Positions 6,242 to 6,628 of a stretch of DNA of 64,000 bases are shown one piece after another. Position 1 is the stretch's first letter, and each line of letters opens with the position of its first letter. The notes beneath the pieces are model-generated. The model was not told the DNA's origin, searched no databases, and saw only the letters and a program-made list of their open reading frames with translations. The DNA is taken from assembly GCF_054482525.1 (NCBI RefSeq), contig NZ_CM137006.1; one strand, 5' to 3'. The position numbers and the translations under genes are program-made.

Positions 6242-6628
6242 TTAACGATACTTCTGGTGATAGGCGTTGCGGGTCGTTTTCAGTTGCTCTGCGGCAGCCT
6301 GCGCTTCTTTTACTTTACCTTCATTTGCCAGCTTCAGCGCGTCGTCAATCTGACCGACCAGAATATCGAAACCGTGGCGGAAGTCTTTCATTTCCGGGCT
6401 GTCCGGTGATTTGCCTTCGAGCTTCGGCGGCGTCGCTTTTTGCGCATCCAGCGCTGCGGCGCGCATCTTCGTTAACGCGTCTTTGACTTGCGCCGCGTTA
6501 TCGGCTTTTTCGACCACTTTTAAATTGTCGTTGAGGGTTTCCATATTGTCTTCAAGATCAGCGGCAAACGACGCCGAACTGAATACCAACGAGGAGACTG
6601 CAAGAATAGCTAACAGGCTTTTACGCAT
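6242..6628 (-). CDS. cybC: soluble cytochrome b562, apparently full length with signal peptide
   Basis: 128 aa; N-terminal signal-like [22 protein letters not shown] followed by the b562 helical bundle sequence. Confidence 0.9.

Follow-up and report, generated by a model that had tools for sequence, protein, structure and literature searches.

The window, a 64,000-nucleotide stretch of contig NZ_CM137006.1 (RefSeq assembly GCF_054482525.1), contains the cytochrome b562 gene cybC between nrdG (positions 5063 to 5527, plus strand) and pmbA (positions 6811 to 8163, minus strand). A relBE-family toxin-antitoxin cassette lies between nrdG and cybC, and a palindromic dispersed repeat lies between cybC and pmbA. 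The features of this interval are listed in Table 1.

Table 1. Features between nrdG and pmbA, with their positions in the window and the basis for each assignment
Feature	Position	Strand	Basis
Variable nrdG-cybC segment, ~710 bp here versus ~44 bp in K-12 and most E. coli	5524..6236		Alignments
relE-family toxin gene, 96 aa	5528..5818	-	PDB RelE, E = 2e-35; TIGR02385, 29.9 bits versus 27.9 (marginal); RefSeq WP_001105433.1
relB-family antitoxin gene, 80 aa	5808..6050	-	Pfam RelB, E = 6e-16; NF008412, 130.1 bits versus 96; RefSeq WP_000212715.1
Palindrome upstream of relB (TGTAATGCAT / ATGCATTACA repeats) that contains a TATAAT	6075..6107		Inverted repeat of 10 nt, 100% complementary
Terminator-like hairpin just past the cybC stop	6209..6234	-	Consensus scan; 11-pair stem with 6 G-C pairs
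cybC, 128-aa cytochrome b562 precursor plus stop codon	6242..6628	-	ATG ORF; Pfam, NCBIfam, PDB, RefSeq
cybC codon 124, His (mature His102), second axial heme ligand	6257..6259	-	Residue present in sequence
cybC codon 29, Met (mature Met7), axial heme ligand	6542..6544	-	Residue present in sequence
Signal peptide, cybC codons 1 to 22	6563..6628	-	Mature PDB chains begin at residue 23; Sec export and cleavage presumed
26 bp missing in K-12: 7 nt of leader, ATG, codons 2 to 6, and first base of codon 7	6610..6635		Pairwise and multiple alignments
Shine-Dalgarno-like AAGGA, 8 nt upstream of the cybC ATG	6637..6641	-	Read from sequence; function presumed
Dispersed repeat of 125 nt, an imperfect palindrome, between pmbA and cybC (upstream of cybC)	6651..6775		Inverted-repeat search

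The product of the cybC open reading frame was compared with protein family profiles and with solved structures. It matched the Pfam profile PF07361 (Cytochrom_B562) from end to end (profile positions 1 to 102 of 102; E = 5.8e-34; 117.2 bits against a cutoff of 30), as it did the NCBIfam equivalog NF011632, "cytochrome b562" (profile positions 1 to 127 of 127; 193.7 bits against a cutoff of 130). In the PDB, the 128-residue precursor chain 9tmp_A aligned with it over its whole length, and 126 of the 128 residues were identical; the two that differ are I39V and D72G. In the alignment, V39 was also found in K-12, O157, and TUM2820, and G72 was also found in A11 and TUM2820, indicating that both are common natural alleles. 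Residues 23 to 128 correspond to the aligned span of the mature 106-residue b562 chains 1apc, 1qpu, and 256b. Judged from these matches, the reading frame is a near-identical, profile-supported orthologue of cytochrome b562, well beyond chance.

Since the mature PDB chains align from residue 23 (ADLEDN), residues 1 to 22 were assigned to the signal peptide. This segment is identical to that of the 9tmp_A precursor. It carries two basic residues and a hydrophobic core whose Kyte-Doolittle hydropathy averages 2.24, and the residues S-F-A precede the predicted cleavage site. The first-pass annotation had described a full-length cybC with a plausible signal peptide, and the profile and structure matches confirm that description. 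Met29 and His124 of the product align to the matching residues in 9tmp_A and the 256b-type chains; these are Met7 and His102 of mature b562, the axial heme ligands in the b562 structures (256B). The identity to a solved structure argues for a four-helix-bundle fold, and heme b binding and periplasmic redox activity are predicted for the product. In the proposed pathway, the 22-residue signal peptide would direct Sec export of the CybC precursor to the periplasm, and cleavage after Ala22 would leave a 106-residue four-helix-bundle protein. The mature b562 would then bind one noncovalent heme b via Met7 and His102 (precursor Met29 and His124) and would act as a small soluble periplasmic one-electron carrier. 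Published work still calls the physiological partner of cytochrome b562 unknown.

A 2-kb query around cybC matched the chromosome of E. coli PCN033 with 100% identity; in that genome, RefSeq annotates the same gene as cybC (WP_001232246.1). Over the first 22 kb of the window, the sole mismatch with PCN033 (NZ_CP006632.1) was at position 19515, where the window has A and the RefSeq record has G. PCN033 is a porcine extraintestinal pathogenic E. coli strain (PMC4578781). The window also contains the IS3-family element IS1397, with a transposase that has a programmed frameshift, between yjgA and mpl (approximately positions 8908 to 10256); no insertion sequence was present at this position in K-12 or the other strains inspected. 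A second type II toxin-antitoxin pair, annotated by name as chpS-chpB, lies about 12 kb away in the ytfP-ppa interval (approximately positions 18500 to 19100).

The 125-nt repeat upstream of cybC has inverted arms at positions 6648 to 6673 and 6748 to 6773 and sits in the presumed leader and promoter region of the gene. When positions 5400 to 7000 were scanned against Rfam, the sole match was V_AS5, which was full-length but weak (24.6 bits against a gathering score of 96). Membership of the repeat in the V_AS5 family was rejected because this score is below threshold, and the match was taken as a sign of a structured repeat. The ERIC2 primer aligned with the repeat better than shuffled controls did, and the repeat is presumably ERIC/IRU-like from its appearance. 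A literature search on cybC together with ERIC found nothing relevant. The repeat family occupies a median of 3 places per E. coli genome, and the copy between pmbA and cybC is missing in approximately 1,547 genomes, such as that of TUM2820, where the pmbA-cybC gap is 54 bp. Because K-12 also carries the repeat upstream of cybC, it does not represent a difference between the window and K-12.

A crude consensus scan of positions 5400 to 6900, the pmbA-cybC spacer included, found no sigma-70 consensus promoter. Together with the palindromic repeat in the leader, this result could mean that cybC is intact and yet silent in the window strain. Such silence appears very improbable. O157:H7 and A11 combine the repeat with an intact gene, the scan was no finer than a consensus match, and cybC may be cotranscribed with pmbA. 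In addition, cybC is among the genes with far more mRNA in REL606, a B strain, than in MG1655 (PMC3446290), and the B-strain gene, compared in BL21-Gold, is uninterrupted and has 97.7% nucleotide identity to that of the window. We favor the reading that the window carries an ordinary cybC gene rather than a silenced one.

The curated record of MG1655 (NC_000913.3) flags cybC (b4236), which is 368 nt long there, as a pseudogene, in agreement with the first-pass annotation. Had K-12 carried an identical full-length gene at this position, the contrast drawn there would have fallen; the alignment that it proposed instead revealed that K-12 lacks 26 bp, the sense-strand sequence of which is GTGAGCAATGCGTAAAAGCCTGTTAG. 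This deletion was the single disabling lesion found in K-12 cybC when the window was aligned to K-12, and no microhomology flanking it was present in the alignment. The K-12-type junction, AAGGAA/CTATTC (with the slash marking the breakpoint), does not occur in the window, which retains positions 6610 to 6635. The deletion takes the end of the leader (7 nt) together with the coding sequence from the ATG through codon 6 and would leave no exportable protein. Upstream of the remnant, the K-12 frame reaches a TGA after seven codons and is without a start codon, and the first canonical in-frame starts within the remnant are a TTG at the Leu14 position and an ATG at Met29. Ahead of the truncated signal peptide, the frame offers none of the codons ATG, GTG, and TTG, and therefore no exportable CybC is expected from K-12. 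Any K-12 cybC product would probably lack a working signal peptide.

It could be argued that the K-12 remnant is still translated, either from the ATT chosen by PGAP or from the TTG at Leu14, in which case K-12 and the window strain would differ in the quantity or localization of the protein and not in its presence or absence. On K-12 derivatives, PGAP indeed places a 121-residue "cytochrome b562" coding sequence (WP_023649327.1) that starts at a noncanonical ATT; the frame runs uninterrupted as far as the native stop, and K-12 still has the AAGGA motif. However, AAGGA is just 3 nt from this ATT codon, the signal peptide has lost its basic n-region (MRK), and the curated MG1655 record treats the locus as a pseudogene. 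CybC has also been described as cryptic in K-12 strains (PMC4361602), and less cybC transcript has been measured in MG1655 than in the B strain. Continued translation of the remnant is therefore distinctly unlikely as an account of the difference, and loss of an exportable product through the deletion remains the preferred one. The pseudogene of the curated record and the 121-residue coding sequence of PGAP are in conflict as annotations of the same remnant.

Across the retained 368 nt, the K-12 remnant and the window cybC have 96.5% nucleotide identity, with 8 synonymous and 3 nonsynonymous codon differences between them. The K-12 changes G72D, A122S, and Q125K were considered as products of pseudogene decay. 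This possibility was rejected, since the alignment placed D72, S122, and K125 in the intact 128-residue genes of O157:H7 and O145:H28 as well. Because these intact genes share them, the three residues represent allelic variation and not decay.

To place the two cybC states in the species, 5,426 complete E. coli genomes were searched. The K-12 deletion was detected with a 71-nt query spanning the junction, at a threshold that admits only a contiguous match. Under these conditions, cybC DNA was present in 5,425 genomes and the K-12 junction was present in 355. Sixty of the latter, sampled evenly, were all K-12 laboratory derivatives (MG1655, BW25113, DH5alpha, DH1, C600, J53, MC4100, and TG1, among others). 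By subtraction, an uninterrupted cybC match remained in approximately 4,957 genomes (~91%), a figure that takes account of large lesions only. Since about nine-tenths of complete E. coli genomes are uninterrupted in this sense, intact cybC is the species default. The first-pass annotation had regarded the intact gene as a strain marker, and these counts reverse that assignment: the marker is the 26-bp deletion, and it identifies the laboratory lineage of K-12, not the window strain.

The same survey uncovered a different lesion. In CFSAN027343, cybC is split at approximately codon 26 (equivalent to position ~6551 of the window) by the IS66-family element ISEc22, and the insertion is accompanied by an 8-bp target duplication, TATTGTCT. 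An identical cybC/ISEc22 junction was found in 113 of the 5,426 genomes, and the two sampled strains that state a serotype were O26:H11 and O111:H11. The ISEc22 insertion is thus a second natural cybC knockout, independent of the K-12 deletion.

On the other side of cybC, the relBE cassette takes the place of the 44-bp nrdG-cybC spacer of K-12. The suggestion of broader differences from K-12 in the nrdG-cybC-pmbA interval was therefore correct. The antitoxin gene comes first and overlaps the toxin gene by 11 nt, and the relE stop abuts the nrdG stop without a spacer, so that the two genes lie tail to tail; the nrdG stop codon is TAG in the window instead of TGA. The TIGR02385 score of relE was marginal, and the match of its product to E. 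coli RelE in the PDB was strong, with a gap-free alignment across residues 1 to 94. In this alignment, the window RelE retains Lys52, Lys54, Arg61, Arg81, and Tyr87, the catalytic residues of RelE. Ribosome-dependent mRNA cleavage by the toxin and its neutralization by the antitoxin are predicted for the pair. By analogy with RelB autoregulation, the palindromic repeats upstream of relB are presumed to form the promoter and operator of the cassette. The terminator-like hairpin past the cybC stop is specific to the toxin-antitoxin haplotype, and cassette-free strains have a different hairpin that is shared with nrdG.

The relBE cassette was found in 454 of the 5,426 genomes (8.4%), in every case on the chromosome, and was at least 80% complete in 391. 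In the O145:H28 strain 16003, relE has been lost through a deletion (approximately positions 5533 to 5816 of the window) and an orphan relB is kept with its promoter; in other O145 genomes, the match is restricted to the relB part of the cassette. In a K. pneumoniae record (5.37 Mb, from a plasmid collection), a homologous pair likewise follows nrdG immediately and converges on it. Amino acid identity to the window proteins is 80% for RelB and 64% for RelE, and the presumed operator is conserved as well; for nrdG and nrdD, identity is 92 to 94%. Because a homologous pair holds the same position in K. pneumoniae, the nrdG-relBE linkage may be old and may have been lost in most E. coli strains, rather than being a new gain here.

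The first-pass annotation had connected the intact cybC with the adjacent toxin-antitoxin pair. In its strongest form, this connection would make the intact gene and the cassette one horizontally acquired block that jointly marks a lineage, as might be suggested by their adjacency and by the cybC terminator hairpin peculiar to the cassette haplotype. The haplotype combinations contradict it. A11, TUM2820, and O157:H7 have an intact cybC without the relBE cassette, and the TUM2820 protein is identical to that of the window (WP_001232246.1), and O145:H28 combines a remnant of the cassette with the other cybC allele. Moreover, cybC is nearly universal among the genomes surveyed and the cassette is confined to 454 of them. 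Acquisition as one block is accordingly extremely improbable, and linkage of the cassette to intact cybC was rejected. These data indicate no linkage between the cassette and the state of cybC; the cassette and the upstream repeat are separate presence/absence polymorphisms of one interval.

Taken together, these results indicate that positions 6242 to 6628 are almost certainly the ordinary intact cybC of a non-K-12 E. coli strain and that the contrast with K-12 stems from a single 26-bp deletion in the K-12 lineage. Published work has already described cybC as cryptic in K-12 and as expressed in other strains, and the cybC findings made here are ordinary and known. The by-products of the analysis are mildly new, namely, the clonal knockout of cybC by ISEc22, the synteny with Klebsiella of the relBE pair beside nrdG, and the conflict between pseudogene and coding sequence for the K-12 remnant. 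Two broader proposals can be drawn from gene arrangement and counts. Independent inactivation of cybC in at least two successful E. coli lineages would mean that b562 is conditionally dispensable or even counterselected in some niches. The relBE pair beside nrdG would be an old locus shared with Klebsiella, and its read-through transcripts, running antisense into nrdG, could link activation of the toxin-antitoxin pair to the anaerobic ribonucleotide reductase. Both proposals are speculative, and we consider them unlikely.

The K-12 form of cybC should not be taken as the reference, a point that matters mainly for annotation hygiene. E. coli cytochrome b562 is the source of the BRIL fusion partner, and CybC is widely used in protein engineering in the form of BRIL fusions. 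Work on what cytochrome b562 does physiologically is better done in a strain other than K-12, such as the window strain, and the two natural knockouts, in K-12 and in the O26:H11 lineage, provide ready comparisons.

The window protein shares its length, signal peptide, ADLEDN start, and Met/His ligands with the soluble cytochrome b562 of E. coli (CybC; PDB 256B, 1QPU, and 9TMP), and its two substitutions relative to the reference 9tmp_A (I17V and D50G in mature numbering) are conservative. The b562 locus of other E. coli strains holds the same position between pmbA and nrdG. The cybC' pseudogene of MG1655 is the orthologous locus, with flanking genes as in the window; K-12 MG1655 differs in lacking both the 26 bp and the relBE cassette and in carrying the D72/S122/K125 allele. 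The cybC::ISEc22 allele of the O26:H11/O111:H11 Shiga toxin-producing E. coli (STEC) lineage is a further naturally occurring form in which cybC, at this locus, has lost its function. Its mechanism is insertion, in contrast to the deletion in K-12, and the window has no such insertion. Finally, the RelBE system of E. coli K-12 (PDB 4FXE and 4V7J) has the antitoxin-first order, the 11-nt overlap, and the presumed palindromic operator of the window pair. The window pair differs from it as a paralogue at another locus, downstream of nrdG, that is absent from K-12.
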